NCBI GenBank assembly: GCA_965233585.1
Contig: CBDDTI010000422.1
Span: forward strand, 1-32,495
Origin: a bacterium
GTDB lineage: Bacteria; SAR324; NAC60-12
DNA length: 32,495 nt
Direction of reading: 5' to 3'
The notes under the pieces were generated by a model. The model did not search any database, was not told the origin of the DNA, and saw only the letters and a list, made by a program, of their open reading frames with translations. Shown here one piece after another: positions 8,477 through 32,495 of this stretch. Made by a program: the position numbers and the translations under genes. Each line of letters opens with the position of its first letter. The stretch's first letter is position 1.

Positions 8477-8686
8477 CACCGCCGGACCTCAACCTGGGAC
8501 CTTCCGAGCTCAGTGAGCACCGCTGGACTTCAACCTGGGACCTTCCGAGCTCAGTGAGCACCGCTGGACCTCAACCTGGGACCATCCGAACTCAATGAGT
8601 ACCGCTGGACCTCAACCTGGGAGCCGCCAAACTCAGTGAGCACCACCTGGGACCTTCCGAGCTCAATGAGCACCGCTGGTCCTCAA
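8477..8686 (+). repeat. 41-bp tandem repeat CACCGCTGGACCTCAACCTGGGACCTTCCGAGCTCAGTGAG, about 5 copies
   Basis: Copies start at 8477, 8518, 8559 and 8600, followed by truncated copies. Confidence 0.92.
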
Positions 8687-8687
8687 C

Positions 8688-10287: not shown

Positions 10288-10544
10288 AAAATATTTGAAG
10301 GTATGCCGCATGTTCGAAACAAACCCATCTGAAAATCTTGGGGATTCTTCAACATATAAGTTTACACACGCATACCACACTTCGGCCCTGGGTTTCGCTA
10401 CTACTCACAGCCACGAGTGAGTATAACCAAAGCCTGGTATTCGGGGATTGGCAATAAGTAAGTTTTCGTTGGTTCGGGCACCTGCCTCTATCTGTGTTAT
10501 GGCACGCGTCCAATGTTGTCCTCGATGTTGTAAGTGATGTTGTG

Positions 10545-11078
10545 AATTTCTCGTTTTTTTTTCTCACATAAATTTTCATGTTGTAAATTTGGCGTTTTTT
10601 TTCTCACGTAAATTTTGATGTTTTAAATTTGGCGTTTTTTTTCTCACGTAAATTTTGATGTTTTAAATTTGGCGTTTTTTTCTCACGTAAATTTTGATGT
10701 TGTAAATTTGTCGTTTTTTTTCTCACGTAAATTTTGATGTTGTAAATTTGGCGTTTTTTTCTCACGTAAATTTTGATGTTATAAATTTGGCCTTTTTTTC
10801 TCACATAAATTTTGATGTTGTAAATTTGGCCTTTTTTTCCTCACGTAAATTTTGATGTTTTAAATTTGGTGTTTTTTCCCTCACGCAAATTTTGATGTTG
10901 TAAATTTGGCGTTTTTTTCTCATGTAAATATTGATATTGTAAATTTTGCATATTTTTTCTCACGATTTCTCACGTAAATTTTAATGTTGTAAATTTGGCG
11001 TTTTTTTTCCTCACGTAAATTTCGTTGTAAATTTGGTGTTTTTTTCCCGACGTAAATTTTGATGTTGTAAATTTGGCA
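10545..11078 (-). repeat. Left subterminal array, ~40-bp unit, about 13 copies
   Basis: Tandem TTTTTTTCTCACGTAAATTTTGATGTTGTAAATTTGGCG. Confidence 0.95.
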
Positions 11079-11300
11079 TTTTTGATTCATTCTGATTATG
11101 AAGTTTTGATTCATTATTCTGATAAGTGATAAATTAAGTTAAAGTATCTGTTTTTGTCAGCCCACCAGTTAAAAGGTTATTAAGTTATCAATAAATTATC
11201 CATATCAATGATGATAAATTTACATATTTAAACATTAAAATCAAGTTAAGTTCAAAAAATATAGAAAAATACTTTTAAAAACATTGTAAAATTTCCGGTA

Positions 11301-11980
11301 CATCCAAACGGTTCAGAACGGTTCAGGCGTATCAGTTTCTAATACATCCGAACGATTCAGAACGGTTCAGGCGTCTCCGAACTATTCCGAACCATTCCGA
11401 ACTAATCCGAACTCAGGCCTCCGATACATCCGAACGGTTCAGAACGGTTCAAGCGTATCAGGTTTTTGCCTTAGATTCTAAGCTTAAAAGTGGGTAATTT
11501 TTACAACATATTATCATTTAAGTTAACAAGTTGAAGATACATGATTTGTAAGCAAGTAAAGGTTTTAAGCTATGAGGTTTTAAGTTAGTTACAAATTATA
11601 AGAGGAAGAAAAATTGTAAGACAAGTGATGTCAGTTGCAAGTTGTGAGTTGTAAATTGCCATAAGCCAAGGTACTTTAAGTAAAAATTTCGGTGAAGAAA
11701 AACATGTCTGAAAGTAACTTAGGCTGTGATACAAGTCGTGGCAGAATGTTTTCCCAAAGAACGGGGCTGGAAAAAACTTAGGCTAAATTTCACAATCTTC
11801 TGACAAGTATATGTCACACCCAAACCCGTCTAAGGCAGGCAATCTTGTCACGTAAGCGGTCAGTGGCCCTCTGAGATCCATCCTAGGGGCAAGGATGGGG
11901 AAAACGGTGTGACATCTGAACCGTTCTGAACCGTTCGGATGCATTTCATATAGTTCGGAATAGTTCGGGATAGTTCGGGA
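11301..11980. repeat. Internal inverted-repeat pair (possible nested MITE) built from 10-bp units
   Basis: (TCCGAACTAT)n...CATCCGAACGGTTCAGAACGGTTCA at 11376-11451, with extra copies at 11301 and 11345, mirrors TGAACCGTTCTGAACCGTTCGGATG...(TAGTTCGG(A/G)A)x3 at 11917-11980. Confidence 0.8.
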
Positions 11981-12819
11981 CTGTGTTTATATTAAGCTCT
12001 TGTCTCTATAATTTGCCTGTGTGTTATCACACATTTGCCCATAAGTTTACAGCACTAGTTACACAGTACTTCAGTGAGATCGAATTTTGCCTGGTTTCGG
12101 GGCACGTAGATTCGCGTTGCGTGAGGGCGTACATGCGTGGACGTGCGTGCGTGCGTGTATCCTGATCGGACCTGCCTTTCTCGCAGGTGAGTCTTGTCTT
12201 GTTACCTGCCGTTACGTACCAATTTTACTTGCCACAGCCTACCAGGATCTAGCAGGTTTAAGGAAACGAATTAGTTTATCATTTATTCAGCATTATGCAT
12301 TATGCAACACTTACAAGCAGGAAGTGACGATGTGACAACGCAACCATGTACCAATATGTGACAGTGACCCACAAGCACGGTTATCACCAAGAACGGAGCA
12401 ACGAGAACAAGAACAGGAAAGCGAAAAAAAAGAAGAAGAGTAACAATAACAACAACAACCACGACGACGACAACGGCATAACCAACAAATGAAGGGCCAA
12501 TGGAGGGACAAAAAGACAAGTTAAACACACCCACCAGCTTCAATGCCAACTGAATTTCAAGAAACAAACAAAAACCAAAAACTGTAAGCAGGAATCAGGA
12601 GTGTGACAATACAAAAAGAATTGACCCATCTCAACATCAAAAACATCATTGCAATAACGACGTGAACAAAAATGGGCGCGCATAGTAAATCATGAATCAT
12701 GACTCATGACGCATAAATCACAGGAAACAAAAAAATATAACTCACAATGTCAGTCATGACTTGAAGCAAGAAAAGTTCGCGGTTGATAACGTCAATTATG
12801 ACATGAACAAGACTAAAAG

Positions 12820-13233
12820 TGGCGTTTACAAAATCCAAATTTATGTAAGGAAAAAAATTGGCATTTATACAGCGTCAAAATATACATTAGGAAAAAAATG
12901 CGTTTACAACGTCAAAATTTGTATAAAATAAAAAAAATCGGCGTTTACAACGTCAAAATTTACGTAAGAGAAAAAAAATCAGCGTTTGCAACATCGAAAT
13001 TTACGTAAGACCAAAACAAATCGGGGTTTACAACGTCAAAATTTACGTAAAACAAAAAAATCGGCGTTTACAACGTCAAAATTTACGTAAGAAAAAAACC
13101 GGCGTTTACAACGTCAAAATTTACGTAAGAGAAAAAAATCGGCGTTTACAACGTCAAAATTTACGTAAGAAAAAAAATCGGCGTTTACAACATCAAAATT
13201 TACGTAAGAAAAAAAATGGGGGTTTACAACGTC
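12820..13233 (+). repeat. Right subterminal array, ~39-40-bp unit, about 10-11 copies, inverted relative to the left array
   Basis: Tandem CGGCGTTTACAACGTCAAAATTTACGTAAGAAAAAAAAT. It shares TTTACAAC.TCAAAATTTACGT.AGAAAAAA with the reverse complement of the left array. Confidence 0.95.
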
Positions 13234-13741
13234 ACCGATAACGTCAACCAGAATGATACACGTCAGCCGCGACACAAAGGGGCAATTACAGAGGCAGGTA
13301 CCCGAACCAAAGTCTCCGTTACAAAAAACATTGAAAATTCAAGTAATTCGAATAGATACAAATAAAAATTTCTCCATGTAAAATAGTAGATCTTAGTGTA
13401 CCAACCAATGTTTTGTACATCCCTACATTTTATATGGAGGAATATTTCCCCCGATTTTTGATTTTTTTTTTTTTCTGAGTATGAATTTTTCTTGGACCCC
13501 GACCCCCCAAAAAGGTATCTGTGTGAACCTGTTGCTTTGCCACTTCCCTGCATTTTTCTCACTCAGCCTTCAATTGTTTTTAAGGAGCAAGCTATCCTTT
13601 TTGTAAGGAAATGGGCTCACTGATATTTACGGCCTGTCTTTTTACAATGTTGACAAAAAGTAAAGCGGTCATATCCCCTTTCTTTTGCCCAAGAGTTGGG
13701 TTAGAAAGCCAGGCTGACTCGGAAAAGTAGCACGGCGTTGC

Positions 13742-13805
13742 ATTTTGAGATCTTAGTAGTTACAACTACCAAATAGCAGAGTTGCAAGCACTAAGATCTC
13801 AAAAT
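13742..13805. other. 16-bp perfect inverted repeat (hairpin) with a 32-nt loop
   Basis: ATTTTGAGATCTTAGT (13742-13757) pairs with ACTAAGATCTCAAAAT (13790-13805). It extends imperfectly through GTTG/CAAC. Confidence 0.8.
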
Positions 13806-14132
13806 CAACCGCCATGCCACTAGTCTGAATAAGCAAAGTACAACATGCTCAAAAGAGACAACTGCTAAAATCTATGCAGAATTAGGCGCGCAGCTCGTTT
13901 TCCAAGAATCACACCAATTTCCTACAAAATAAATGGCCCCAACCCCGCCAAATTTTCAAACTGCATTTTGAGATTGCTATATCAGGGTAATTTTATGCAT
14001 AAATCATCTATGTTTTTGCTCTTACAATATGGCAAGGTATAGGTAGGCTCCCTATAAAATGGGCCTTGAGGCCCTTCAAATTAGTTCATACCTAGAAACT
14101 CCGAAACCGAGAAAAATCAAGGGTTCAGTCAT

Positions 14133-14168
14133 AAAACCAGGGTTTGCATTGCAAAACCAGGGTTTGCA
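14133..14168. repeat. Palindromic motif cluster AAAACCAGGGTTTGCA, 2 copies (left subterminal)
   Basis: Copies at 14133-14148 and 14150-14168. Confidence 0.8.
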
Positions 14169-14390
14169 ATTTATGCATGTTTCCACGCCTCTTACTGATG
14201 CCTTTTTTCCTGACGGAGCCCAGTGAGACGTTGATTGTCAAAGAGTGCCTGGCCTAAAATGGATGTGCGGGGCTTGGAAAACTACCCAAAAAGGTTTGAA
14301 CACTTTGTAACATCCACCCTTTGAAGTTTGTCATGTCAAAAATTGACATGGCTCAAAGTTGCTGAGTTTAGGGAATTTTAAGCTGCCCTT

Positions 14391-16172
14391 TCATCCGTCA
14401 AAGGCCTTGCTAGTCGGCCGAATTATGTATCCAGCTTTGGCAAAATGTTCGTATGATGCCTGCAAATGGCGCTGGAGCACCCTCGGAGCCACTTGGAGAA
14501 GTTTAAGGGTTACTCGCCTCGCAAGGCGAGAAGGTCTTCTCACGAAGTTCTCTGATTGCTGTGTTGCCCAGCATATTGGGTTCACAAGTGGGCCTATGAA
14601 CGATCCTTCGAAGAGATATAAGGTGAGATGGTGTAGTGCGCGATGCTTCGGTTGAAGAATCCACAAGCACTGCTGGCGTTCAACTGAAAGGCGCGCTAAA
14701 AGAGCATACCGCTTCAGAAACGCTAGGCCCAAGTCAGCTGCATTTCTGCTTTCTCGACATGTCAAAAAGGCTTCGCCCTTGTAGAATACCCGAAGGAAAG
14801 AGTTGGCCATGACTGCGGCCTCACCAGCAAGCTGTGCCATTTCTGGCCATGCCCTGCCTTCCGCTTTGAATCGCCACTCCATCCATTTCATGAGCACTGT
14901 GGTCAAGGCTCCTTTGTGCCAACCGCCGGTTGGAAAAGTGGTAGTGGTGCCCCATCCTATCAGCTCCTTGGAGATCTTTGAGACATGCGGCTGCTTCTTG
15001 TGTGCCAAGCAAAAATCTAAAAACAGTTGGGACAACCTCTCAAAGCGGTCATCAACCGAAGACTCTGGTTGAAGCTCTGACAAGATTGCTATAAAACTGC
15101 TGAGGAAATATTTGCCCACCCCTAAATGCCAGCAATGAAAGACATCAAAGGACCAAAGCAGCCCCAATCTGCCAGGAGGATGTGGCACCTGCTCAAGAGG
15201 CGATGGTCCCCAATCCTCACTATGCAAATCTTGGGCGTGCATAGTGGGCCTCCACTTTGGCTGCGCTGTGTTGATTTGCTCGAAGTCAAAGCCAACTTGA
15301 CCTGCTCTGCAAAGATGGCAAATACCAACCGGAGGTTTTCGCCGCACATTTGTGCGGTGCTTCGGCACGTTTCTGAAGCTGCGCTCCATGTATGCAGAGT
15401 CAGAGAGAAATGGCCAATCGCCAGAGACTTGCAGGAGTGCAAATGTAAATTTGCCGCGGCTAGCCAAGCGATCCATCACACCATTGTGCAACAAGTCTTT
15501 GGACTCTTCGGCAACCAAGGCAAGGAGGCTGTGAAAAACATATTCTCGTTTGCCAGTGTACATCAACTTGGGCATGGCTGCAAAGAGAAACCTCGAAGTG
15601 AGCGAATGCCCTTCGTAGTTGGGCAGCAACTTGACATATTGGTCTTTACCTTTTAATGTTGCCAGGCCTCTCCCGAGCATGCTATGATAATTCATCACAA
15701 GAAAGGCGCTCCTCTTCCGTCCACGCCCCTCGTCACCATGCAAAATTGTCGGTATGCATGTCGAGAGGTTCAGACGGTTGGAGTCTGCTAGTGCAAAGAC
15801 GGGATGATCGGGCACCTGAAGCCGGTACTGTTTCCAAAAATGATCAAGGATTGCAGCTTCTCTCGCATGATCAGGCTTCATCAATCCACAAAAAATGTGG
15901 GTGTGATTGTTCATCACCAGGTACTCACACCAATCACGGAACCGAAGTACTGGAACGAACTAGTCCCTACCGTCATCCCCCGTATCCAGCCGAGATTGAG
16001 GAATCGGCAACGCTAGCTGATGCTTTCCCACAAGAAGCCTTCTACAGTCCCGTTCGGTATTCTGTTCTGAACGCTTGGACAAATCAACAAGACCGGGTGA
16101 TCGGTTAGCAGCTGCTACCCCCACATCAGCTACAACTGCTTTGGCTGCCCGGACGACCGCAGCACATGCGGC
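14391..16172 (-). pseudogene. CACTA/EnSpm/Plavaka-type DDE transposase; main exon of ~590 codons with one in-frame TAG at 15962-15960; first exon not located
   Basis: Ordered motifs HGDEG, GDWP, CHLC, DVFHCWHLG, QPKHRALHH and SENF match the CMC/EnSpm pattern (D..D..CxxC..DxxH..KxH..E). ORFs 15960-16217 and 14391-15917 share a frame (...DDGRD*FVPVLRFRDWCEYLVMNNH...). Likely acceptor AAG|GCC at 16172. Confidence 0.8.
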
Positions 16173-16452
16173 CTTGGGACACCGGGCAAAAGCGTCAGAG
16201 GGAGGAAAAAAAGGCAAACCAAAGGGTGGATGTTACAAAAGTGTCACGCTGGGGTAGGGTATTGCACAGTTTGGCACAGCGTCGTGGTTGTGAATTCAAA
16301 CAATTTAGAGAAAAGTTTCGTTCAAGCAAAAATTTGTTGCAAACAAAACTAAGACCAGACACCTGACAAATTGTTGCAAGCCATTTTTTCCCTTCTTGTT
16401 GCGGGCCACTTGTAGGCCTTTTGAGTAGCGCAAAACCATTTGTGGAAACATA

Positions 16453-17294
16453 TCACACACATTTTTTTACAGGTGGTAGGTGCCGAAAAAATCTATATAC
16501 AACGTATGTCATGTAGATTTGGTCTTCCCAGGTTTCACCAACGTCATGGATAGTGTCACCGCCAAATCTGGTATTTTTGCACCCGGCAGTGCCTTGGATG
16601 ATTGGACAGGTTGCGTTAGGGTGGTCAAGGGTCTATCTACTTGTAAGGGGTTCTGACTTCTAACTATTAACATTTCTTTAGGTGAACATAACCCCCGACT
16701 ATATATCTATAGATTTAAATCTCATATTATGAAAAAATTGGTTTACAATTTTTGGATTTGGAAATAGTGGAACAAGGTGCTGCGGTACTTGTCGATCATG
16801 GCTGCTTCCAGCATGCCAGCGCTGTAAGGTTCAGGTGAAATGTACATAATCAGCATATGACTGAATCGTTCCTTTCCAAAGGCATAGCCGTAAAGTTTGT
16901 TGCCCCACCTCCATAAAGGAGAGTGTGTAAACCCAACCTTCCATGTCAAGGGAGCTTGAGATTGGAAAAGGTTTTCCAATACGGTAGAGGTATGACGAAC
17001 TACGGCGCCCGAAACAGCATCCAAATTTAGAAGTTAAAATTGAACCACACCAGGATACTGCTGTTCCAGTGTGCCCTGAAGATCCCTTAGCTTTGGAAAC
17101 CGGTCAATGTAGAGAGCTAACCGTTTGGACCACAAATTCCTGCTCGCTGACGTTGATTCGATTTTCGGAATGGTTTCAAAGTCAATTTTCCTCCTTTTCA
17201 GATCTGTTTCCTCCATGGTAGCAGTCTGCAAAGGCGCTGCTTCGCAACATGGTTTCTGGACATGACTTAGCCATGAAATAGACGACTTGGAAAC
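16453..17294 (-). pseudogene. GIY-YIG-like nuclease gene; exons 17294-16781 and 16592-16453; one in-frame TAA at 17036-17034; more 5' exons possible up to ~18050
   Basis: WKVGFTH..LWRW..YGY..AGMLEAAMIDKYR splices (GC donor, AG|G acceptor, phase 1) to STAGCKNTRFGGD..YMTYVVYRFF..stop. KxGxT, R, ExxxI and NxxxGG are GIY-YIG hallmarks. ORFs 17034-17321 and 16743-17024 are in frame across the stop. Confidence 0.6.
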
Positions 17295-18399
17295 CTGAGG
17301 CAAGAGGGCCCCAAACATCAAACTGAATTAATAGGTAAAAGATCACGTCATTTTTTTTGAAATAAAATGATTTTCAACCGGTTTTGTTCTGTTCTTTCAG
17401 TCAAGGAACTGACCGGTGACATGTTAACAGTTTCACCAACCAAGCGTCATCTTCATCAAGCTCAGATACATCATCGGACGGGCATTGCATGAAAAATAAA
17501 TTATCGATCTAAATACATAGGGCATTATGCCTGGAAATGGGCCACATGCAGCTGCGCCGGATAGGCAGAAGAGGTTGAATCAAAAATCACATGCTTGCCC
17601 TTTGTTGGCCCTTGAGGTGCTGACGCCATTGCCAATTTCATGGCTGAAGTTGCGAACTGCGCGGCCCACAGGCCGACCTGGCAGAGAAGGAGTCATGCGA
17701 AGAGAGTCAAGAGTAATGGGGATACATTGGGTAATGTGGGGTATTTCGGGGTAAGCCGTTTGAACTAATCCCAAAAAAACAAAGCGTCCCACACATTTAT
17801 AAGACAATTAAAAGTTTGTGGGTAGGTTCAACTTCAAATCAAATAGGTCAAGAATGCAAAGGCATCTCACAGAGCGCAATCTTCCAGCTGTCCCGCAGAC
17901 ACGGCTCCGGTTTGCCAAATGCAGGCCACAAATTGATTGAAGAGAGGACTGCTTGTGGGGATATCCCACAGCTCTGGTGCAGGCGACCCCCAACTCCCCA
18001 AACAAATCTTAGAGGACCTAAATTAAAAGTTGGAACCATCATGGGAATCAGCAACGTATTTAAGTATATACATAATGGTTCGGATGGTCACCCGCAGGAA
18101 AGCTTAGAGGGTTTTCAACTGCACACCCAAATCTACTTGGCTACTTATCACAGGCTCCCACATCATCACACGCCAGAATGAAACAACAAATTGTATTAAG
18201 TTGTTCGAACATAAATATATATATCAAGACGGACTGGTTTCAAGCGTGTTTTGATGTTCAATGGAAAAGTGAAATCTGAAATCTTAACTTTTGCGTTCAG
18301 GCATGTGTAAATGCACAACGAACTGCTAAGTGATCATTGCCAAGAGAGTCACATAGGTTCAGCCCATGCGACAACCCCAAAACCAAAAACATGATCCAC

Positions 18400-21300
18400 C
18401 TACTTGGCCTTTTTGGCCTTCTTTTTGATGGAACTTTTGGCAGCGGCAGCCTTTGCACGGGCACTGCTATTCGCAACCGGCTTTTCAACTTCAGTAGAGG
18501 GGGTCCTCTTGTCCCTGGTGTAGAACTTCTTTGCATTCCTGCAGCAGTTTTGGGAGAGGAAGAAATGATAAGCTGACTTGATAAAACTAAGCTTTTCCAA
18601 AAAGAAGTCAGGGAAGTCAAGGAATTTATGATATGTGAGATGTCGTTATTTGTTTATATAAGTTCAAGTTGGTGAGCTATGGTCAGAATCAACATGGCTT
18701 CTGGCCCCCCCAACAGTCCTCACTTTGTTCTCAGTCGCCAAAGTCTTAGAGCACCTTAGCAAGGGCTGCCAGGTGGAGGAAGATTTGACGGGCTTCACCC
18801 AAAACAAAATTCTCTGGGGCACAGCGTCAAGGAAATTGAGGTATGAATGTAAAGGTTGCTTTCTTCATTCGTTCCTCTGCCATTTTCACAAACCTCACAA
18901 CAATTTTGGGGAACATCCCAAGGGTTGGTACATTGGAAGATTCAAGGTGATTCAAGTATATGGTTTTTTCTTGAATGATGCAATGTAGTTGCAACCATTC
19001 ACCCGTTCAGATCAATAACTGAAATCTGAAAGTGTAGTGCTAATAGAGTTGAGAAAATTGAGTACGTAGCTCTGGAGATCCAAATTTGTCAGCTTCGCCC
19101 CGGGCCCAAGCTTCATTGCAGGAGTCATAGGCCATGTCAACCTCCTTGATCGCCACTTCCAAAGCTGGAATGCACCTTGGTGCAGCTGGGTGGGAACAAG
19201 GTTCTGCCAGGACTGATTGAATTGGGGTAATTAGCCAATGGACCAATTGCTATACTATACTTGTACATGAACAACAGACCAATATATGCTTGCGTGAGAT
19301 GCCATGTTTTAGCCAGAACTGCATAAGATAAGGGGCTGTGTGGCAGCACTGTCACTTGAATACTTTGAACGTAACTCCCGGATCAAAGATCTCAGCTTCC
19401 CCGATTTGCTCATCATGGATTCCAAGAAGCGACCAAGGTCATCCTTAACCTGCGATGTGGGAAAGGTAGCAGGATTGCTATAATCAAACTTATAAATAAA
19501 TATTGTATACTCTATAGTTACTGGTAGGGATGGCGAGCCATTCACGCAGTAGACTTGCATGGTGTCCACTTCAGAAGGACCGCTTACTTACCAAAGTAGG
19601 TTTTGATTTTTGTTGAACATGTTCGCATGGATCCATGCACATGTATGGGGTCGATGGCAGCACAAGAATGAGTCTATGATAGTCACGAAGCTGCATCCCT
19701 GTCCTGGGCATAGCGATTGTGTGAGGGATCTTCAATCGCCTTGGTACGTTCCTTCTGCTCTCGATCTTCCATATCCTTCAGGGCACCAAACTTGTCCCCA
19801 GCCATGGTGTACGCCGGGTCAGTGTTGGCCTCTCGCCAGGCAAAAGGGTCATGGATCCTCTGTTAAGAAAAAGCAGTTTGGCAAGCAAAATGTTGGGGGC
19901 CTTGGATGTGTTCCGGTGCTGTTCTTCGTAGGAATACTCTGTGGTTTTGTGCCCAGTTTCACGGACAGTGACCCAATATTCCTGGGCTCCATCATAAGCA
20001 TTTCGCCTGGCCAAGGCTATGGTCCATCAGGTTGGGGTTACATGTAAAGTAAAATAAACAACAATAAATGGTCCATATGTGTTTGGCATTGTTGATTCAA
20101 ATTCCCACATCCAAATCATGAGAGTGGATGGCCTACAATGGGATTCGCCAATTGCCACACATCGGGAAATCGCACCTTGGATGCGAGTCCTTGGTAGGTC
20201 ATGGCTCATTCATATATATATATATATAATATATGTTGATTGGCCGCTATGGCAAATCAGTATGAAGCACTACTGGGGTATGTACATGTGTAAATAACAT
20301 CTTTTATAAAAAATATTAAGGTTCCTACTGAGACCACTTGAGGTCATCGGCCATCTCAGACTGGCTGTACCAGCCTTCTTCTTTCTTGATCTGCACCGTC
20401 TGCTTCTTTGAAACAATTGTATGCAAAGTGGATAAGAACTCTTCCTGCAGGAAAATAAAACATGATTGGTGGAAGAACAACAGCTGGTGGTAAAATAATT
20501 GTAACCATTTATGACCCAAATTGTGTTTCCAAAAATGCCGGAATCATTGAATAACTTTTGAGGGCAGCCTTACAACCTTACTTTTTTGAACTGCGATCCT
20601 TCTGGAAATTTTCTTGGCGTAGGACATCACCGATCTCATCTTTCGTCATGGACCCACCACCTTTCCATTCACGCTTCAACCACTCAGGGCAATTTAAATG
20701 GGGCCTTGAAGGGTGGTCCTTGCACATGCGGTCGACCCTGGCTTTGGCTGCACGACGGAGCTTCATCTCCAGGGGGTGAAGGATGCGAAATTGTGATACC
20801 CCACGCCCCACGATAGGAAAATATTGTAGCAACCATATATCAATTGTGTCATCTTTGAACATATTTATCAAGCAAGTTTCCAAAAATGATTAGAGCTGGA
20901 TAGTTAACAGTATATTGAATGAATGCACGGATACATCATCTAATATCACACACATATGATTCAAAACTTTCAGTATTGGTATATCCAAGCCTGACGATCG
21001 GTCATGCCACCAATTCGAAAGATAGATCGTGTCGCTTGAGATCCGTCAGGTTTCTTTGTCTTATCATCCGTGGATTCCATGGATTGGTCTGGTACCTGGT
21101 CACCTGGAGCCTGCTTGGAAGGTTCACCAACCACTCGGTTGTTCTCACCGGGGTTTTCTTTCTGCTTCTTAGAAGGGGAATTCTCCAAGCATTCAACAGA
21201 CTGAGGAGGTCCAGGCCGTTTGCGAAGAGGTGTTGCCACTGGCATAGCGGATTGCAAAGTAGAATCCTCGATCAAGCGGTTTAGAAAAGTCAGAGTTGGT

Positions 21301-21982
21301 TACATGCAGCAACAAAAATATATAATATATGTAAGATATCAGGCGTTTGTTTGCACCACCTTGGCTATGAAGACTGTCAATTCGAATTCGCAGCTGGAGC
21401 ACAACACCATTCCCAGGGGTCTCAAGAGCACCTGCTTGTGCTGCTTCTAGTTCTTCTTCCGTAGCCTGGGGCGCGGTGAAAAAATCCCCAAGTTGACTTG
21501 ATTGTTGCGTTTGGCTTTGAGGTTGGAACAGGAAGAGTTTCCGCTTCACAGGGCAAGGGCTCCCCAGTCAAAGCCTTCAGCAGTGGATGCATGGTATTTA
21601 GGAGAAAAGACTTATACTTTAACTCAACTGAATTTTGAGGTCCCAGCGGTGCTATCACTTTCTTGTGGGTCAACAAGGGGCTGCCCAAGTTTCGTATTGA
21701 TCTCCTGCATGCAAAATGCACCTGAATGGTATTTCCGGTGCCAACTGTAATATATCAAACATGGTTTTGAGTTCGTATGTTATGATCAGCTAGAAATTTC
21801 AATCCATTAATTGAATACATGTCCACTTGGGCATGATTGCACATGACATCAGTCATAATGGCCTCCAATTCTTTGAGCAAACGGGCTTCTTCATCAAAAG
21901 CGTAGTCAAGGACATGTGCCATCCCACACTCCAGCGTCTCACAACTCCACAAGTTTGAAACGGGGATCTCTTGCTGAGACAT
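18400..21982 (-). CDS. Multi-exon hypothetical protein (element accessory gene); exon structure only partly resolved
   Basis: Protein-like segments, several starting at AG|G sites: MSQQEIPV..(21982), KLRRAAKARVDRMCKDHPSRPHLNCPEWLKREWK, EEFLSTL..EGWYSQSEMADDLKWS, RRNAYDGAQEYWVTVRE, VKDDLGRFLESMMSKSGKLRSLIREL, CIPALEVAIKEVDMAYD, and a Lys-rich end ..KKKAKKAK*. Confidence 0.65.
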
Positions 21983-22409
21983 CCTGGTCCAGCTAAAATG
22001 GCATCGGATTCATTAGAGCAGGATAGACCAAACAGTTTTGGACATGTCTTTCAGTAAGGGACCATTAGACAGTTTAATTCATATTTATCATTTTTTCATC
22101 ATAGAAGACTAGACTTGTTGAACAATCTCTGTTTCCGTCAAACCCGTCAAAACCCGCTTTATGTGTGTTGCTTTCTTGCAAGCCATGCATGATTGATGCC
22201 AGAGGTTGAATACTAGTGGAAGGTAGGTGCACATAATTGAACAACAAAGACAATGACAAAAACCTGCTCTATGATGAATAGCTATTTTCGTGTTGATTTT
22301 GCCAATCTCGATCGGGGAATTTGCAAGCCCCACTTCTGCAAATTAAGGTTCTCGAAGCTTCTCGAATTTCTCGAATTAGCCAACCCCAAATGATCGAAAT
22401 TTGTCATCA

Positions 22410-22640
22410 AAACCAGGTGAAAAATGGACTGGTTTTGGAGGTCTCAACCCGTGAAAAAAATCACGGGTTGTCACGGGTAAATCATGGGTTGGTCATGGGT
22501 TCGTCACGGGTTTGTGCAAAACCAGGTTTTTCACTAAACCCAGGTTTTGGGGTCCCAAACCCAGGGTTTTGGTTCCGAAACCCAGGGTTTGCATCTGTAA
22601 ATCACGGGTTGGTCACGGGTTTAGGATCAAACCCGACATT
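22410..22640. repeat. Internal cluster of AAACCCAGG(G/T)TTT palindromes and CACGGGTT/AACCCG motifs
   Basis: Four palindrome-like copies at 22515-22593. TCACGGG(T) or TCATGGGT occurs about 7 times at 22460-22620. Confidence 0.8.
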
Positions 22641-22741
22641 TGCATGTGGAAAAATTTCAAAGTGTTGAAAGTAGCGAATAATCAACCATGATTTTTCATC
22701 GATCCCTCGAACCCTGGGATTGGTTCCCCCACCGAAAATAT

Positions 22742-25082
22742 CTAAATTTTGTCGGGAATGAATGGTCGGAATTCAGGCGGGATTTTCAGTCGCTTCGACC
22801 CACGTAAATATTTGTACAACTCGTCAAATCCAACAAAACTCCACAAATCAGAATCCGCATGCCACTCCATGCCCAAAGTTTCCAAGACTGAAGGTGTGAC
22901 TGCCGGAAGCTGAGGTTGGCCGGCACAAGACTCCTTCATGTCTTCGATCAAATCAACCACTGCTCTGGCAAAGGCCATGGGATAAACCCTGAGGATGGGC
23001 AAAGAATATGGAATGGGATGGGATATGCACATGGTGTAAATCAACCATTAAAAAGGGTGGCCAGCCAAATAATTCTAACATGCATATGTTAATCCAAAGC
23101 ATGCTATATCAGGAATTTATGTTTTTACATGGGGGAAATATAAAAGTAAAAAAAATCCATTACCGTCAACTATGATCATAACCCTGAATCTTAGGATGTC
23201 TTTGGCACATAGATAAACGGTTGGTTTCGGGGATAACCATAAGGCGTGATATCCTTACAAAATGGATAGCTAAAGGCAATGGATTTTCTTTGATCTTGGA
23301 TTTCTTTCAAGTAACTCTGTGGACCGGAGATCTTTGGTGCCCTTGTAACGGACTTTCCCAGTAGCATCTTTGTACTTCACACAGGTCTTTATGGTCTGCC
23401 TTTGGGATGTAGGGTTATGAAGGCGCCCCCTATCCAAGCGACGGATTTTCTGGCTATTGCAAAATGCATAATGCCTTTTTGCTGTGGGACTGCCGTAGTG
23501 CCTCATCCACCATTTCACCGTGGAGACCTGAGGTACATAGCCCCAAACCAGTAAAACCACAAAGTTCCAAAATAACTGTTTGTTCACCTGACCAAGCAAT
23601 GATACAATTTTCTTGTGTATTCAGAGAAGATTTTGAATCCACAGTAATGCATGGAAAGTCTCAACAGGTGCATATCTAGCGCATATCTCACGCATATCTA
23701 GCACATAATGCCGACATCGATCGGTGTAAGGGCATAACTGCAAAAGGTCCGCCAGATTCACAAATAGATAGCAGGATAAATCTCCATGTTGGATAAAATT
23801 CCAAGAGCGACCCAGATGGCTGTTCCAGGGACCAACATCCTCCAAGAGCAGTGCATAGGAGAACGAGGCAGCATGTCCTGCGGTGCCAGTCTGGTTAGCT
23901 TGCGCGTGTTAAAGTGGGAATTGGCACTCCCCATGGGGCTACATATGATTTCACCCAGTATCCTATCACTAAACCAAATAATGTTTCTTATTCCAACAGG
24001 TTCCACATTCAGAACAAAAAAGCATTTCCAAATACCAGGTTCCTTTCCAACAGTTTGTTAGATGTACGAACAGACGCATGTAGAAGACATCCTATGGAAG
24101 TGCATGCGCTTCTCATTGACGTTCCAATGTTCACCTTACATAGAGAGCTGCATTTGATGCCGAAGTGGCATGCGAAGGCATTCATCGCCCCTTTCATCAT
24201 CACCAGTGCTGCCAACCTTATGGATGTGAGAAGGCCGGCTGATAGCGGGATGGAATCACCACTTGATACAAACACATTGTCTCAACCTGAGAACCTCGAA
24301 GCCTAGATAGACCCCCTGTTGAACACCTTCCATTGGGAAACAAAACATGTCAAATACTGCCACAGAAACGCAAAACCAGAAGGACTGTTGAGATCCATGT
24401 AGTTTGACCTCTTCGAATTCTTTGGAACTGAATGGTCTTTGATATCAAACCTGACATTTGTGTACTTGGCCGCTTTCATCTGTCGGCAGATGTTGCCAAC
24501 ACCTGCGAAGAACTCCATATAGTCCACCTCCTGTTTGGAAAGAGATCTGCGTGTATGACATCCATATGTATGCAGAGATGAATTGGCATTCGTAAGTCAA
24601 AACATGAAAACATGGATCCATGACCGATACCGCATGTGATACACATGGATCTAGCTATATATGTATACATGGATTGCGTATGCCTGGAAATCTACCCTGG
24701 TAAATTGAAATCTCTGTTTCCCAAGCCGACCTGTGTCATGTCAAAGCCGCTCCATGTGATGAGCAGCAGGCAAAGAACGAACTCCTGGCCAGAGGCAAGT
24801 TGAAGGATGGCGAGAATAGGTTGTGGTGAAAGCATATATGTACAATGAGTATTGATGAATATCGAATATATAATATCGATTATATATATAATATTGAATA
24901 TATAATATCTGAAATGGGGATGGGGATTGACTCTTCATGAACCTTACAGGCATTTGTAATTACGACTTGCATGGCTGTGCGCATGCTTGTTGATAGGTCA
25001 ATTAAACCCTCACGACCCTAACACTCTCCTTTGGGCACTTCAGCAGCCGAAGACGAAACACCAGGTCGTCAATCCAAGCCAT
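22742..25082 (-). CDS. C5-cytosine DNA methyltransferase-like protein, 7 exons, 346 aa
   Basis: Exons 25082-25029, 24784-24731, 24530-24370, 24216-24043, 23877-23739, 23527-23316 and 22988-22742 total 1041 nt. Phases are compatible, all acceptors are AG|G, and donors are GA, GT, GT, GA, GT, GT. Motifs in canonical order: I EFFAGVG, II RFD, III MDL, IV IKCSS, VI LEQP, VIII YGSPTAKRH, X-like YPMAFARAV. Confidence 0.8.
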
Positions 25083-26522
25083 TGCTATGGACAGCCCCGG
25101 AAGGGAAGCCAATCTGTTGAGGATAACGATGGAACCAAGAATGATATATACATATACTCTATGAACACCTCATTGTGCAAGTATCTCAAGACTTAGCGCA
25201 CTTTAGCTTTGCTGGAAATCTGTACCAGTATTTACTACATCCAGAGTAGAAGATTCCATGTCCATGGGAAAAAGCTGCGGGAAAAGTGGTTGAACACGAT
25301 CAGCATCAATCCACCTTGCCATAATGAAGAAAATAACCCCTTTGATTATTGAATCATACAGAGATGTCTCCTTTGAGTACTCTTAACCGATCATCATTCC
25401 ATCATTGAACCTTGATGATGTGTTGATGTTTCAATTTGTTGACCCAACTCCAAAAAAACATGCCAGAGGGCACAAGATCTTTTCAGAGTTTCCAGCCGGA
25501 CACTCCACAGGTTGTTGCGTCGCTGCAACTTGCGAAGCCTCTCCACCGTCATGTTTTGACCTTGGCCGGGTATCAACACAGGATCCATGCAAACAAATGG
25601 ACAGGGAAAACATGGGGAAACATAATCATAGGCACGCTATCTCCAATTGATGACTATATATGCATTCGTGCATCGTGCAGGTGACGATTGTTCTTATTTT
25701 TTTGAATGCAACAGTAGCCAGAACTTGTTTTTGATAGGCACTTGAGGGACACAAAATTCTTCAAGGATGGTGGGATTCCATGATAGTGGAAACAACAGTG
25801 TGAGTCAGAGAGACACCCTGTCCCCTGAAGAAGGCTCCAGGTTTGTCAAAGTTCTTTTAACATAGGATGGCGGCAACGTTCCTTTTTCTTTTCTCTCTGA
25901 TGGGATGAGCATTCCATCTGCAGGTCTAGTGCGCAAAGCAGCCCTGGGATATCTTCGTGGATTCAGGACAGACTTGGCCATCACCCTAAAGGTGGTATAT
26001 TGGGACTTTGAGGGGTAGTTATTGTTTCCCATCCCCCCTTAAGTCCAGACAAACTGCTTTATCATATGGTATGTTAGTAACGTAATTATGTATATAATGA
26101 TATGGGTCCCGAAAATAACTAATGGTTTAACCAAATATCAAAGTGAAATACAGATCCAACACTTATTTGTCACAATTTCCAATTATGGATGGCCATTTGT
26201 TTCCAATAATGGAGCTCGAGATGCTGTCCAAAAATCCTTTGTGGGCTTTATCTCAAAACGCTCGTATGTTCTCCCCGAAGTTCAACACTTGAAGATCAGT
26301 TTTCAAACCTTTCTGTGGGAACAATTTGCCACCACTAAGTTTTGATCAAACCAGTGGGAGTGACATCAGTGTCCAACTTGCCCGCAACTCCTAAGCTGAC
26401 ATGTATATGTGTGAACCCAAGCAGCTTGTTTCAAAGCTACAACCCTGAAAGACACGCAAACAGCCAGCATGTTGCGAGCGGTTGGCACATCATGAGAGCA
26501 TCTCAAAAGGGAGTTGGTCAAA

Positions 26523-29500
26523 TCAATTGGGCTTTGTAAGAACCAGTGTGCCAGTCGCTTTCAATGAGTCTCCGAGTCGCTCTACCTCCGAACTATCCCC
26601 AACATCATCTTGGGCAATCTCACCATCGTTCACCATTCTGTCGAGATACATCACCTCGGCCGGGTAGTTGGATAAAATCAATGGGGGGTACATGGGATTC
26701 AAACAAACCCAGCGAACGAGTGACACTATCTAGACATCAAACTTATGATGAAACAAACCCTTTTGATATCCTTTGCCGCCAGTTGGAAAAACGAGTCACC
26801 CTGTCAGCAACCTACTTTTTGAAGAAAATAATTTGTCCTGACCTCGCTTGACTGCATACAAAGCATACATGTCATACGTTCATGCATGCATATATGATAC
26901 ATAATGATACATATATATATATATGTGCATGTTCATGCATGGTGCACTCGGGTCAAGTTACAAACAGCTTCGCACATTTCAGGGCCACCGCAAGTCGGGA
27001 CATGAAATTGGGGCCATCAATGTCATTGAAGCTGAAGGAGCATAAGTCTCTCTTGGCAGATCGGGAGGTGCACCCAACACGGCCGGTCTTCCAGTAGATG
27101 TTGAGTCTGCACTGCTGCAGATTTGAAACCTTGAGCCGGGTCTTCATCTCAACTTCATCTCTTCTGTCACAGAAGTTGCGGGATTGTCAGCGTACAACTC
27201 AAGGTATTTCCTGATTTTCGGAACGTCTTTGTCCCTTGGTAAGGCATCTGGTTCCTGCGAAGTTGGTCTTTCTGCCTTGCGAGCTTTCTTCTGAGGCTCC
27301 GTTTTCTGAATTTCTGTGGTGCTTTTTCTCTGCTTTGTTTCGTTGCCAGTTGACTGGCCAGTTGGCTCCGCCACTGGCTTTGCAAACTTTTTTGCTTTCT
27401 TCTTTGTCTGCTGTTCCTCTACATCTTTGAGCTTACCCAAAGATTCATTTCCATCATTCCATGCGTAGGCGTCCCAGTGGTACCCCGACGTTCCCCAACT
27501 TTCATGCGCCCATTCCTCATCTGGAGGACCGTACTCATTGTACCATTCCTCCTCCCACCACCCCTCATCCTTCTCATCCTTCTCTGGAGCTTCCTTGTGT
27601 GAGCCCTTCCCAGACCCTTTCTGCTTTGTGGTAATTCTCCCTCTACCCCGTCCCCGTCCTCGTCCCCGCCCTCTAGGTTTCTCTGGTTTCAAACCTAATT
27701 GGTCATCTCGTGTCACGTAGGGCTCGGATGACATTGCCTAGCCATCACAAGTCAATGCACCACATAGGGCAAAATGATACAATCAGATTCTTTATTTTGG
27801 CATCCCTGCAGTGAATGATCTATGTTTGTAATTCCCAACCCCCTCACATATCCCTTCCCAAGCCTCATCAAGCTTGGATCTTTTCATGGGCTTCACATCG
27901 TGTTTGGGTGAAGCATCTGGTTTTTCCTGGGCGTCATCAACATGAGCGGGCTGGTGTCCTGCTTCTTCTGGTGTTGTCTTTTTTCTACAACGGTGAAAGG
28001 TATTTCGTTTCTGGGCTGCAGAGACTTCAGGCGAAGGTTTCGGTGTGACTTCTGTAGGAAGCGGCAAGGTGTTGACATCAACGGGAAAAGTCTCTTGTTC
28101 GTCCGTAGCCGCTGAAGTGATGTTCACTCCTAAAAAACAGCAAAGTAAAATTCAACCCACCTATCAACCCACAACAAGAAATCCATACAGTATTCACCTT
28201 CACATGTTCACTACGGAGTGCATGTGCTGGAGTATTTTTTTTGTGGTCGGCGCCCGTTGCCTTTCGGCGGGTCGCACTTGAAACTCCCGAGTGGACCAGC
28301 AGGGATTCGAACCACCACCGGCAGTCTGTCAGCGCTGGCAAGACCAGCGCCATACCAACTGAGCCATCGGGTCGCCTAGTGCATGTGCTGGAGTATGAGG
28401 AAAAAATGTGCAGCTACAACTGCTCCTGGTCCCCCGGAAACTACTAGCGACATCAATGCCAAACGTTCCTCTTCCTGCTTTTTCTTTCGCAACCTCAAAC
28501 AAGTCAGGAATTGTTTTTCCCAATCGCGCAGTTTGACAGACCACCAACAAAACAATGTCAACAGCTTTAACACGCTTTGAGACAACATTTTACTGATCAG
28601 CTTTGATGCCTACCTTCATGAAAAGAAATGCGTGCATTGTTACTAAGTGGATGCTAATCAGTTGTTTGAACAAACACCTTGATTTGATAGGTCAAGCCTT
28701 GAAATGCAGCCAGAAACATTGCCAGCCGTGCGATAATCTCGGCCCTTTGTTTCTCCAGGTCCCTTTGTTTACCTGGAGTGAGGTACTTGGTAGGTGGCAA
28801 CTACCCCAGTCACATCACAACAAATATGTTTTTGTTGTGCATCTCGATACAACTTGAAGAAATGCAAAAACATAAATTTAAACAAGTTGCTTGCATTTTC
28901 TGCATCACTTGCGGCAGGGGGTGCTTCATCACTGGGAAGTCTGGTGGGTTCCGTGGGGGAAGGAGTCGAAGTTGCCTGTAACTTGCAGTCTGTCTTTTCA
29001 TCACCTTTGCACACACCTGTCACCTGACCCGTTGGTTCCTTTTTCTCTGCATGTACCTCTTTTTGCTGCTCTGTCTCTACCGCAGCTTCCTGTTGAACTA
29101 CCTTCGCAGCCTTGCCGCTGCTGCTAGAGCTTTTTTGTTTTTCAAAGGGTTCAATCAGGGGGTCGCTCTCTTTTACATCCTCCTCTTCCCCTTCCTCTGC
29201 GTCCTCATTCCAAGCATCATCCTCCCCATCAGACTTGTCGGCCAGCCCCTGCACCAACGAATACGGTACGTACCCCATCTAATTAATCACACTTAACAGA
29301 ACACATTCACAAAGTATGCACGTTCATGCACACGAGAAACCTGCAATGCAACTTAGCAAAAACACCTTGACATCCTCAGTGGTAAGCCCAAAGATACTCT
29401 TGACAGAGCCCGTGCCTTCGCCTTACTTTTGGCATTCACACTGTCCACCGTAGCCTGTCGAAGAAAAGGGTGGCGAGAGACATGTTTTTTTTTTAACGTT

Positions 29501-30354
29501 TTCATTTATATATATTTTATATATTATAAGAAGAAGAGACTATGTTCAACTCTTCAGTTGGGGTGACGACAGAAAGACTTTAGAAAACATATGCACGCAT
29601 GATTGCCTTGAGAAGCATTGAAGAATAATATTCAGCCTGAAGCATGAAATCCAAGAGTAGGACAACATTCTGGAATTCGATCACCTGGGTCAGGACTGGC
29701 AGTGTTGACAAATAGTAACCCATTCGTTTAGCATTGATTCTCCAGACACATCTGTAATCCAAGAATGATCAGCGTCGATGACCACATGTCACAGGAAAAA
29801 ATGACATTACGGTCATCTAGATTTGTTTGAAACAAATCACAAAGAAAATGACTTGGACATGAAGATGCAGCATCATTTGAAAGTTTCTTAAACCGAGTTG
29901 CGGTCGACACTTCTTGACGTCTAGCTTTCAACTTGACAAACCCGCAGAGCTTCTTGATGGTTTGGCCCGTTTCTTCAACTAGGGTCACTAAGTCTTCCCC
30001 ATGACGTTTCCCCAGGGTCAAGAGAGTTCCAACTTCGTCACGGAGGTCATCAATACTGGGCAAAGGTTGTTTTTCAGTAATGCACATTCTCTGCAAGATT
30101 GGTTCCAGCAAAGCGTCATTCCGAACACAATTGGGTATGCTCTCATGCTTGACCACGGTTCCCTCGGCCATCACTGGGCCACCATCCAACACTCTGTTTC
30201 TGATTTCTTCTATGCCAAACCATTCGTGTGCCAACCCTTTGATAACACATGCTTTTCCAGATCGTCCAGACCCATCACCCTTAAGCTCCGTAGACTCGCA
30301 GAGCTCCTTTGACTTAGTCTTGGAAGCTGTGACGCTGGCTTTGGTTTTGGCCAT
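26523..30354 (-). CDS. Large multi-exon hypothetical protein (element accessory gene) with globular ends and a low-complexity acidic/basic middle
   Basis: Start MAKTKAS.. at 30354 with a folded-looking exon (GLAHEW..IRNRVL..LLEPIL..IKKLCGFVKLKARRQEVS). Acidic exon near 29250, RGRGRGRGRGR exon at 27144-27734, and C-terminal segments RLNIYWKTGRVGC..RLAVALKCAKLF and VMYLDRMV..TKPN*. Joining them into one gene is inferred. Confidence 0.6.
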
Positions 30355-31034
30355 CGTGGCCAGTTTGATCTGAAAATGGCTGAAAAATAATAGCGGAAAA
30401 TAAATATCCAATTTGCTGGTTTCATTTCCGAACGTTGCACCAGGAGCTTGGTTTTCTCCAACTTGGCAGTGTGAGATCCCGGTCATTCTAGCTCCGGGGC
30501 CCCGGACTGTTAATCTCGAGCAGCCAAAAAATCAGCCGCCATTGCTTCAAGCGGATACCCAATGCATCTAATTTTGCATATCTAAGGGTGTTGCCCATTC
30601 TCCCCAATTGTGACTCCACATTATTATTTTTTTGTGTGGGCCTTAAAAATTATATCAAATCACGATTCATTTCAGGGCGTGGTGCAAGCCACAAGTGATG
30701 AACTGGGATTGAAATAAAAATATGCTTTCAGATAATTGGAATGATGGTGCATGAGTTCATGCCTATTATATGTTTACATATAGCCTGAATAGTCTGCATT
30801 AAACGATCAGTATGATATACCACCATCCTGTTGGAGCGATTAATACATTGTATGAGGAATTGTATGATTCACATTGTATATATTGCGTTTTGAAAAAATA
30901 AACCTTATATCACCGCTTAAGGTCATTGAGGGTAAAATCGTTCCATCAACATAAGATAAATCTGCAATGCCACCAATCCGCGGCCCAAGCAACCACCCTG
31001 CAATGGGCCAAGAATCGTACCTGACCCGAGATTT

Positions 31035-31102
31035 GCTGCAAAACCAGGGTTTGCAGCGTAAACCCAGGGTTTGGGATCATCATGGGGTGAAACCCAAGGT
31101 TT
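31035..31102. repeat. Palindromic motif cluster (right subterminal)
   Basis: GCTGCAAAACCAGGGTTTGCAGC (31035-31057), AAACCCAGGGTTT (31060-31072) and AAACCCAAGGTTT (31090-31102). Confidence 0.8.
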
Positions 31103-32495
31103 GTGGTCAAACCCGAGAAAAAAGAAGGGTCAGGATGCGCAAGGTACTACAAAATGGCTGGACAAGGGAAAATAATTTCCTACAAAATGACCCTAGAAAT
31201 CGGGCTTATATTGGCCTTGAGGCCAACCATTTCATAGGGGAAATTTCAACGGGTATACCTTCCAAATATCCCAAAAAATGGTGTTTTATCTAATAGTTTT
31301 TGTATATTAATAATTTTTCGAATTATTTGGAGGGCCGCACGGTACTTACATTTAATTAACATAGATATGTGTCGTTCTTGTCAGTTGTATTACGGAGCAT
31401 ACGAAGCGCAGGTTGAGTGAAAGGCTGCTGTACTTGTGATTTATAAACTCCTGAACACAAAGGAATTATGCCACTTTCATCCACTTTCTAGTTGTCAAAT
31501 AAAACTCTTAACCAATGTCTCAGATATTTTGAAGACCAAAGCATTGTAACAGCTGTATTTTTTTGAGATCAAATTGGCCGAGACCTTTTGGGGGCAAGCT
31601 CACATTTCGCAGTGATTTCCGGTATGATGCATTTTATCTCTCAAAGATTCTCGAGGAATTGAAGCCGCTGCGGGCATTGCAGGCATTGCCCGTCCTTTGA
31701 TTCCTTCTCTTCAATATCATTTAGGCTGTTGTCCCCATGTGGCTCGGCGCTGAGCTCCAGACTCGTCCAAAACCACACGCTGCAGCTTCCTTCGTGGATA
31801 TTTCACTGGGACGCACCCGAACGGCTCAAGTTCTCCTGAAAAAACAAACAATTTTGAATATGTTTATATGTTTTCCTAGGTCTTCGTTCGTAGTATTTTT
31901 TTCTGGGAGACTAGGTTGTTGACTTTTTTTTGAGATATCGGTCAGAAAAAGTAGTTCTTCACCAAAACGCCTACTTTATGATTTCCCTGGTTTCATTTCA
32001 TGCTGCATTACCATATTACGCACTCAACCTCATTCAATCCTATGTCAGTTGAATTCCCTAATGTGAGCCATTGATAAAACTAAGTGAAGCAATGACAAAA
32101 GGCCCGCAAATCGACAGGGTCAATCACCACCTACCCTCTATCCACCATAAGCGAATAAAATCAAAACGCTGTTAGCTGGTCAATCGGCTTTGAAGTGCCA
32201 CTAACAGACTCTTTGGCTCACCATTTCTTAGATTATGTCCATTTTTGTGTGCGATGTGCACGTTTTATGCGAAAGTTCGCGCCTACAAAAACCTTCGAAA
32301 CTCCCTCAAAAAGCTTCAAAACGACTACAAAAACCATCAAACGCCTACAAATCCCAAAAAACTAGGTCACTTTGCTTTTTAATATTTTCGGCAATATCAA
32401 AAAAATGGAAATGTTAAGCCTTCTGCTTCTTTTTTGCAGAATTCTCACGGAATTATATTTTTGGAAGAAACATGGTCATAATTGCAAGTTTGAAC

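Follow-up and report, generated by a model that had tools for sequence, protein, structure and literature searches.

A probable decayed copy of a multi-gene CMCT-type transposon with a cytosine-C5-methyltransferase-like gene among Symbiodiniaceae-type sequences

Introduction

Can a cut-and-paste DNA transposon carry its own cytosine methyltransferase? The question is raised by contig CBDDTI010000422.1 of GenBank assembly GCA_965233585.1, whose positions 1 to 32,495 (the window, i.e., the whole stretch of 32,495 nucleotides that was analysed) had been interpreted, from the letters alone, as harbouring a giant CACTA/Plavaka-like element with five co-oriented spliced genes. Our analysis favours, with modest confidence, a reading in which about 17 kb of the window are a decayed copy of a multi-copy, multi-gene transposon family of the CACTA-Mirage-Chapaev-Transib (CMCT) clade with a methyltransferase-like gene aboard. 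The family is present in many copies across Symbiodiniaceae-type genomes, and we infer that its four genes move as one unit.

All coding evidence within 13.9-31.4 kb is on the minus strand, with coding segments between about 14391 and 30354 whose homologues are found among Symbiodiniaceae-type proteins; those of the largest open reading frame are named as Skav gene models or come from Symbiodinium natans, Symbiodinium sp. CCMP2592 and Cladocopium goreaui, in keeping with the symbiotic dinoflagellate that the sequence-only reading had assumed. The segments are spliced, and their homologue-guided models use GT or GA donors and AG/G acceptors. Read along the minus strand, the order is gene A, a cytosine-C5-methyltransferase-like gene, gene B and a GIY-like/DDE transposase gene. 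The common strand and the splicing described in the sequence-only reading were thus upheld, but its gene count was not: the GIY-like and DDE parts are spliced together, in frame, as a single three-exon gene, and the genes are therefore four, not five. None of the 83 open reading frames of the window (44 on the minus and 39 on the plus strand) belonged to a Pfam family at E <= 0.01, and Pfam scans of homologues and of their alignments returned scattered chance matches only, with no membership for any of the four genes. Neither an Rfam family nor a tRNA was found in the window.

The transposase gene

The gene nearest to the left end of the candidate element comprises the following parts.

16781..17216, minus strand: exon 1, N-terminus and GIY-YIG/T5orf172-like domain; in-frame TAA at 17036-17034, where the homologue P0014 has Arg
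16504..16592, minus strand: exon 2, GCKNxRxGGDT segment, end of the GIY-like domain
16173..16503, minus strand: intron of 331 nt with GT donor, polypyrimidine tract and AG/G acceptor, joining the GIY-like to the transposase part; junction gapless against P0062
14391..16172, minus strand: exon 3, DDE transposase core; in-frame TAG at 15962-15960; substitutions H526R, D557N and G560R

The 522-codon frame at 14391-15959 matches no Pfam family. Scoring of 8000 candidates brought out 130 database relatives at E <= 0.001; P0001, the closest, is 98% identical, and 37 member sequences make up its 90% cluster. Residues D162 (in HGDEGR), D267 (in GDW), C300, C303, D358, H361, H526 and E556 are invariant in 22 aligned members and H530 is nearly so, the pairs C300xxC303 and H526xxxH530, i.e., the C(2)C and H(3)H motifs, falling between D267 and E556. 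In the AlphaFold model of the transposase (pLDDT 83.5, pTM 0.83) strand 154-162 ends with D162, D267 comes directly after strand 255-266, and helix 553-563 contains E556; this is how an RNase H-like DDE domain is laid out. A Foldseek comparison with the PDB gave 40 matches at E <= 0.001, with RAG1 in all of the matches listed (TM 0.41-0.46); the best was 6v0v_A (E 2.7e-6), and the next matches were the amphioxus RAG-like protein BbRAGL, the Helicoverpa Transib transposase (HzTransib), the P element transposase and Hermes. The ESM Atlas offered a Plavaka cluster as a weak lead at rank 26 (score 0.90, 148 shared features), and a PDB sequence profile search with the family gave no transposase match. 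The DDE core with its C(2)C and H(3)H motifs, together with the RAG1/Transib-like fold of the model, therefore places the enzyme in the CMCT clade. At the level of this clade the label of a CACTA/Plavaka-like DDE transposase, which the sequence-only reading had assigned, is right as judged by the catalytic triad, the zinc motifs and the predicted fold. According to Kojima (2025, PMC12730594), the clade includes EnSpm/CACTA, Mirage, Chapaev, Transib, Plavaka, ESTA, Lanisha and, in addition, RAG1, and its elements usually have 5'-CA..TG-3' termini and target-site duplications of 2-5 bp.

The three-exon model (17216-16781, 16592-16504, 16172-14391) has 2307 nt and 768 codons in frame; its alignment with P0062 spans 733 columns, with an identity of 41.5% and no gap at the junctions. 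The frame is kept by a GT donor that immediately follows ...YMTY (exon end 16504) and by the AG/G acceptor (exon start 16172). Three longer homologues (P0014, P0062 and P0091) have an N-terminal segment matching window positions 17096-16770 and 16596-16465, and the GIY-like domain is present in these three of the 272 fetched proteins. The N-terminal 16 residues of P0001 are translated polypyrimidine tract, with pLDDT below 50. What had been taken for a separate GIY-YIG-like nuclease gene is thus a domain of the transposase gene, and the GIY-YIG identity of this domain is weak. In the ESM Atlas it scored only 0.83, its clusters being labelled T5orf172, GIY-YIG or MUG113 on 11-23% of their members, and its invariant residues (K-x-G-x-T, RW, E and the GCxN segment) are suggestive at most. 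Four sequences of the domain had no Pfam match at E <= 10; its profile hit only NDUFS4 among PDB sequences (E 0.3-0.6, judged to be chance), and a homologue search with the GIY-like exon found no candidate of near length. A methylase and nuclease pair resembling restriction-modification, proposed earlier, found no evidence and was rejected, the nuclease-like part being a weakly labelled domain inside the transposase gene.

The window copy differs from P0001 at 16 of 608 positions, one of them the TAG that replaces Glu at 15962-15960, and H526R, D557N and G560R affect invariant or near-invariant columns of the family. The residues flanking the TAA of exon 1 are conserved. D162, D267 and E556 are all kept. 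Because the transposase gene has two in-frame stops, this copy of the transposon must be regarded as inactive.

The methyltransferase-like gene

The second gene in transcriptional order has these features.

22742..25094, minus strand: cytosine-C5-methyltransferase-like gene; exons 24787-24731, 24530-24370, 24216-24043, 23877-23739, 23527-23316 and 22988-22742
about 25094-25011, minus strand: likely further 5' exon of this gene, suggested by P0255
22742-22744, minus strand: its stop codon in the gene model

A search for longer relatives yielded three proteins, including P0123 of Cladocopium goreaui (357 residues). The six-exon homologue-guided model is uninterrupted, and of the 359 columns of its alignment with P0123, 192 are identical. 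Four of its five introns have GT donors and one has GA; the acceptors are AG/G in all five. The gene appears intact, with no internal stops and with the conserved residues kept, and the exon translations from 24787 to 22745 carry EFFAGVG, GIKCSS and LEQPSGS. An exhaustive HMMER search for the family returned 1717 cluster representatives at E <= 0.001; tightening the threshold to 1e-10 left 442 of them, and to 1e-30, 33. Among 26 aligned members E170, P172, S175, K215, G257 and G263 are invariant and C116, R129, N147 and R152 nearly invariant, and the consensus reads ExFAGxG ... xVCSSW ... NRGTSxRS ... LEQPxxS.

In the structure model (pLDDT 84.3, pTM 0.86) ExFAGxG, i.e., motif I, follows strand 1, the near-invariant Cys of xVCSSW comes after the fourth strand (109-113), and the invariant Glu of LEQP ends the fifth strand (166-172). 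Motifs IV (PCQ) and VI (ENV) provide the catalytic Cys and Glu of C5 methyltransferases, and the strand positions match. Cytosine-C5 methyltransferases make up 41 of the 42 Foldseek matches listed from the PDB, the remaining one being a cap 2'-O-methyltransferase. The best match was S. pombe Dnmt2 (E 9.3e-4), followed by DNMT3A/B, DIM2, DNMT1, MET1, EhMeth and M.MpeI; fold matches in a viral library were mostly named cytosine methyltransferases as well. Dnmt2 is described as a tRNA methyltransferase family (PMC5890265). Sequence searches against the PDB returned nothing except a chance match at E 0.71. The predicted fold and the likely cofactor site support the designation C5-methyltransferase-like. 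The product had been named a C5 methyltransferase in the sequence-only reading; this stands for the fold and motif I, but not for PF00145 membership or for the contexts of the Cys and Glu, which are non-canonical.

Genes A and B and the recurrence of the gene order

The two remaining genes, for which no Pfam family was found, are as follows.

26950..30354, minus strand: gene A; ATG at 30354, collinear with P0214
19082..21270, minus strand: gene B; approximate exons 21270-21000, 20772-20596, 20480-20328, 20011-19889 and 19237-19082

Gene A encodes an N-terminal domain (30261-29881) and an acidic, RG-rich and K-rich middle (29278-27144), and its C-terminal segment (27159-27028) matches P0214 weakly (E 0.054) and collinearly. 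Its composition suggests that the product could bind nucleic acids. Six RG pairs, runs of Trp and acidic residues and a Lys-rich tail were observed at 27144-27737 on the minus strand. Gene B was defined via tblastn of the fused gene models P0061, P0150, P0161, P0201 and P0216.

The recurrence of gene neighbourhoods expected from the earlier reading was seen in diverged fused gene models from elsewhere. Gene A is fused to the methyltransferase-like gene in one model (P0214), the methyltransferase-like gene to gene B in the same five models that defined gene B, and the GIY-like part to the transposase in three (P0014, P0062 and P0091). The one model that fuses gene B with the transposase, P0061, joins the C-terminus of the methyltransferase, gene B and the transposase, and the three differ from the window to a like extent (49%, 37-50% and 45% identity, respectively). 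Fused models with the gene order of the window are only 26-65% identical to it, and the gene order is therefore old. P0201 and P0216 exit the last exon of the methyltransferase-like gene early (window 22988-22832) and run into gene B (about 21270); this continuation could be alternative splicing, comparable to the TnpA and TnpD transcripts of En/Spm, or a prediction artefact.

Palindromes, candidate ends and base composition

The genes are accompanied by three palindrome arrays and two candidate termini.

14113..14166, no strand: left palindrome array, two copies of AAAACCAGGGTTT at a spacing of 20 bp, situated some 225 bp downstream of the stop codon of the transposase gene
22458..22611, no strand: internal array, the largest of the three, made up of the palindrome and variants of it with a period of 21-22 bp, between the methyltransferase-like stop and gene B
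31040..31102, no strand: right palindrome array, three copies with spacings of 20 and 30 bp, some 690 bp upstream of the gene A ATG
13903..13914, plus strand: CAAGAATCACAC as candidate left terminus, with TC in front of it; the best inverted alignment starts here; weak
31369..31380, minus strand: candidate right terminus, reverse complement CAAGAACGACAC, then TC; from the same inverted alignment, weak

The 13-bp palindrome AAACCCWGGGTTT occurs in 11 copies with up to two mismatches, compared with 1.56 expected, and none of 100 shuffles reached 11. Nine of the 11 copies are found in three clusters, at 14133-14165 (two), 22518-22590 (four) and 31040-31102 (three). The matching clusters that had been said to bracket the genes are significant as arrays, but they number three and the richest is internal. 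The palindrome has CCAGG at its core, a sequence of the kind that Dcm-class enzymes methylate, which is noteworthy in the neighbourhood of a C5-methyltransferase-like gene.

The best inverted alignment of the presumed ends (13903-14073 with 31380-31213) scored 20, shuffled sequences having a mean of 13.0, a standard deviation of 1.7 and a maximum of 18, and 20 overlapping inverted 14-mers were found with up to two mismatches, compared with 2-11 in 10 shuffles. The terminus motif occurs only at both candidate ends, from which the pattern was derived. The imperfect inverted sequence noted earlier is marginal outside the palindromes (score 20 compared with shuffle maxima of 18-20). Ends of the form CAAG...CTTG with TC flanks would agree with what is typical of CMCT elements, namely 5'-CA..TG-3' termini and duplications of 2-5 bp, but this is far from proof. 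A canonical CACTA element was considered and rejected, the CACTA termini not having been found.

The observed/expected ratio of CpG is 0.52-0.69 inside the candidate element (0.59 over 13903-31380), with an excess of TpG/CpA, compared with 1.12-1.20 in the left and 0.84 in the right flank; the right boundary is gradual, not sharp. The even depletion across 13.9-31.4 kb fits one compositional unit, and its combination with the TpG/CpA excess would fit long-term CpG methylation of that unit.

Weighing of the alternatives

Several results weigh against a four-gene transposon. As regards the ends, a second shuffle run for the alignment with score 20 had a mean of 14.5 and a maximum of 20, which makes the alignment marginal; local alignments and the 14-mer scan of the window gave nothing convincing as terminal inverted repeats beyond the palindromes; no CACTA termini are present at the candidate ends; and the candidate target-site duplication consists of the TC flanks, whose 2-bp match has a chance of 1 in 16. 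Simple subterminal repeats would not lead one to expect a third palindrome array in an internal position. As regards the proteins, the Pfam transposase models (Plavaka PF18759, Transposase_21 PF02992) matched none of the 22 members at E <= 10, and PF00145 matched neither P0123 (E <= 10) nor the 26 methyltransferase-like members (E <= 1) nor the window exons; the Cys and Glu contexts depart from canonical PCQ and ENV, and TM values of about 0.3 over some 210-230 columns are low for the fold matches of the methyltransferase-like protein. As regards the linkage, a methyltransferase-like piece occurs in one of 120 transposase homologues and a transposase part in none of 152 methyltransferase-like proteins, so direct linkage of the two amounts to one gene model, and fused models may be prediction artefacts. 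The absence of joint proteins says little, however, because most database proteins are single-ORF (open reading frame) fragments. Finally, exon-rich genes with host-type splice sites fit ordinary host genes too.

The last point leads to the strongest rival, in which transposon ancestry is confined to the GIY-like/DDE gene, the methyltransferase-like gene and genes A and B are multi-copy genes of the host that sit next to it in a one-directional block typical of dinoflagellates, and the palindromes are ordinary intergenic signals. For Symbiodinium, a head-to-tail arrangement and genes rich in exons have been called archetypal (PMC5890265), and for this reason the co-orientation of the four genes carries little weight. 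Also in line with host genes are the intact methyltransferase-like gene with its host-type splice sites next to a broken transposase, the intergenic position of all three palindrome arrays, the unproven ends of the element, and the fact that a single one of the 272 fetched proteins unites methyltransferase-like and transposase parts. However, this rival has to account for the recurrence of the gene order in P0214, P0150, P0161, P0201, P0216 and P0061 at 26-65% identity, for a methyltransferase-like family so large (1717 representatives) that it fits a mobile family, and for a CpG depletion that is even across the whole 17 kb. On balance we consider this explanation unlikely, though it deserves to be taken seriously.

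The spacing of the palindrome arrays allows yet another division, into two adjacent or composite units with common arrays, one at about 14.0-22.6 kb with gene B and the transposase, and one at about 22.5-31.3 kb with gene A and the methyltransferase-like gene, which would depend on the first. The three arrays are nearly equally spaced (8325 and 8462 from start to start), and the middle and right arrays are most alike (score 34-39 compared with a null of 14 and a standard deviation of about 2). Against such a division stand the adjacency of the methyltransferase-like gene and gene B, which is retained in five diverged fused models, and the lack of further similarity between the halves or around the middle array; we regard it as quite improbable. 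That the region is part of an endogenous DNA virus, or of some mobile element other than a transposon, could be argued from the frequency of methyltransferase-like folds in viruses and the bacterial or phage-type origin of the clusters behind the GIY/T5orf172-like leads, but is hardly credible given the spliceosomal introns of the genes, the lack of genes for capsid, polymerase or packaging in the scanned open reading frames, the lack of a phage match for the methyltransferase-like protein and the lack of relatives of the transposase and P0123 in the prokaryote genome collection.

Relation to known elements and possible significance

If the four genes belong to one CMCT-type transposon, intact copies would excise and insert by means of the DDE transposase. 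The 13-bp palindromes, about 20-21 bp apart, are putative binding sites of a protein of the element, comparable to the subterminal repeats that serve TnpA in En/Spm, and the methyltransferase-like protein would modify cytosines in nucleic acid for the regulation of the element itself. A bolder version of this scheme is an autonomous family of dinoflagellate CMCT elements with epigenetic self-regulation, whose own divergent C5-methyltransferase would methylate the CCWGG-like core of the AAACCCAGGGTTT palindromes, two helical turns apart, and thereby control whether the transposase, or A or B as an accessory protein, binds there; the transposase would also have recruited a GIY-YIG-type nuclease domain for end processing. 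Methylation could then, e.g., couple transposition to replication or shield the element, and the family would be the first cut-and-paste transposon known with a cytosine methyltransferase. We offer this version as speculation and consider it improbable.

The likeness of the window transposase to the CMCT clade lies in its C(2)C and H(3)H motifs, the RAG1/Transib-like fold and the weak Plavaka lead in the family; it differs in the lack of a Pfam match, in the extra N-terminal GIY-like domain and in CA..TG ends and target-site duplications that are no more than hinted at. Maize En/Spm (CACTA) encodes a transposase and TnpA and has subterminal repeat arrays. The candidate element resembles it in its intron-rich genes on one strand and in short repeated motifs clustered near the presumed ends, whereas its 13-bp palindrome with a large internal array, the lack of CACTA termini and of a recognised TnpA homologue, and the cargo genes set it apart.

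Cytosine-modifying cargo has precedents. Fungal EnSpm and Plavaka elements carry TET/JBP dioxygenase genes, whose co-mobility is reported from complete elements with target-site duplications (Kojima 2025, PMC12730594), and they too are CMCT-type transposons with a cytosine-modification enzyme aboard; their cargo, however, removes or oxidises 5-methylcytosine, whereas a methyltransferase-like gene and a dinoflagellate host characterise the present case. SymbioLINE-Dnmt and SymbioDIRS-Dnmt3 of Symbiodinium are described as intronless LINE and DIRS retrotransposons with PF00145-positive DNMTs (de Mendoza 2018, PMC5890265). They share with the candidate the host group and the association of a mobile element with a cytosine methyltransferase-type gene, but the candidate is a DNA transposon of the DDE type, and its methyltransferase-like gene is rich in exons and negative for PF00145. 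The En/Spm families of a red alga, reported at 16-20 kb with 4-5 open reading frames (PMC6431247), are alike in size class and gene number. KolobokP transposons, which are reported to code for a transposase of the DDD/E type as well as a His-Me finger homing endonuclease (PMC9587614), likewise pair a eukaryotic DDE-type transposon with a second nuclease-type module; they differ in superfamily and nuclease fold, and in the window the putative nuclease module is fused to the transposase. In the literature that we searched, Repbase and Dfam not included, we came across neither a dinoflagellate DDE transposon that carries a methyltransferase-type gene nor a GIY-DDE fusion.

Should the four genes move together, a cut-and-paste DNA transposon with a cytosine-methyltransferase-type gene would join the algal DNMT retrotransposons and the fungal TET/JBP elements as the known cases. 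It would add a PF00145-negative methyltransferase-like family with at least 1717 cluster representatives, which censuses of DNMTs based on PF00145 would miss, and the host genomes of these genes are known for very high DNA methylation. The clade of RAG1, Transib and CACTA transposases would be extended to dinoflagellates with a new architecture of GIY-like and DDE parts, and genome annotation would have to count these gene families as repeats rather than host genes.

Flanking sequence

The sequence to the left of the candidate element is rich in repeats, with GC-rich satellites at 1-4300, AT-rich tandem arrays at 4300-10000 and a foldback-like repeat at 10.5-13.2 kb; from about 13.9 kb on the composition is even at 42-50% GC. 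A GTT microsatellite (279-582, about 102 copies) lies between 42-bp and 21-bp GC-rich tandem repeats at 1-910, and a GC-rich satellite (about 58-61%) with a 148-bp unit, some 16 copies, 92-93% match and higher-order periods of 295 and 443 bp occupies 1765-4247. AT-rich arrays (20-30% GC) with 41-bp and 12/24-bp units follow at 5631-6579 and 8691-9206, with a GC-richer 41-bp array at 8477-8644. Immediately to the left of the candidate transposon, inverted arrays of a 40-bp repeat at 10535-11083 and 12815-13234, with arms of up to 125 nt that are 78% complementary and about 2.2 kb apart, form a foldback-like element, inside which an inner inverted pair of 10-bp repeats is found at 11376-11413 and 11950-11980. 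An imperfect hairpin of 55 nt (13713-13834, 76% complementary, 12-nt loop) is situated about 70 bp outside the candidate left end, and the right flank contains a CGCCTACAAAAACCTTCAAAA-like tandem repeat of 20-21 bp in about 3.5 copies at 32280-32362.

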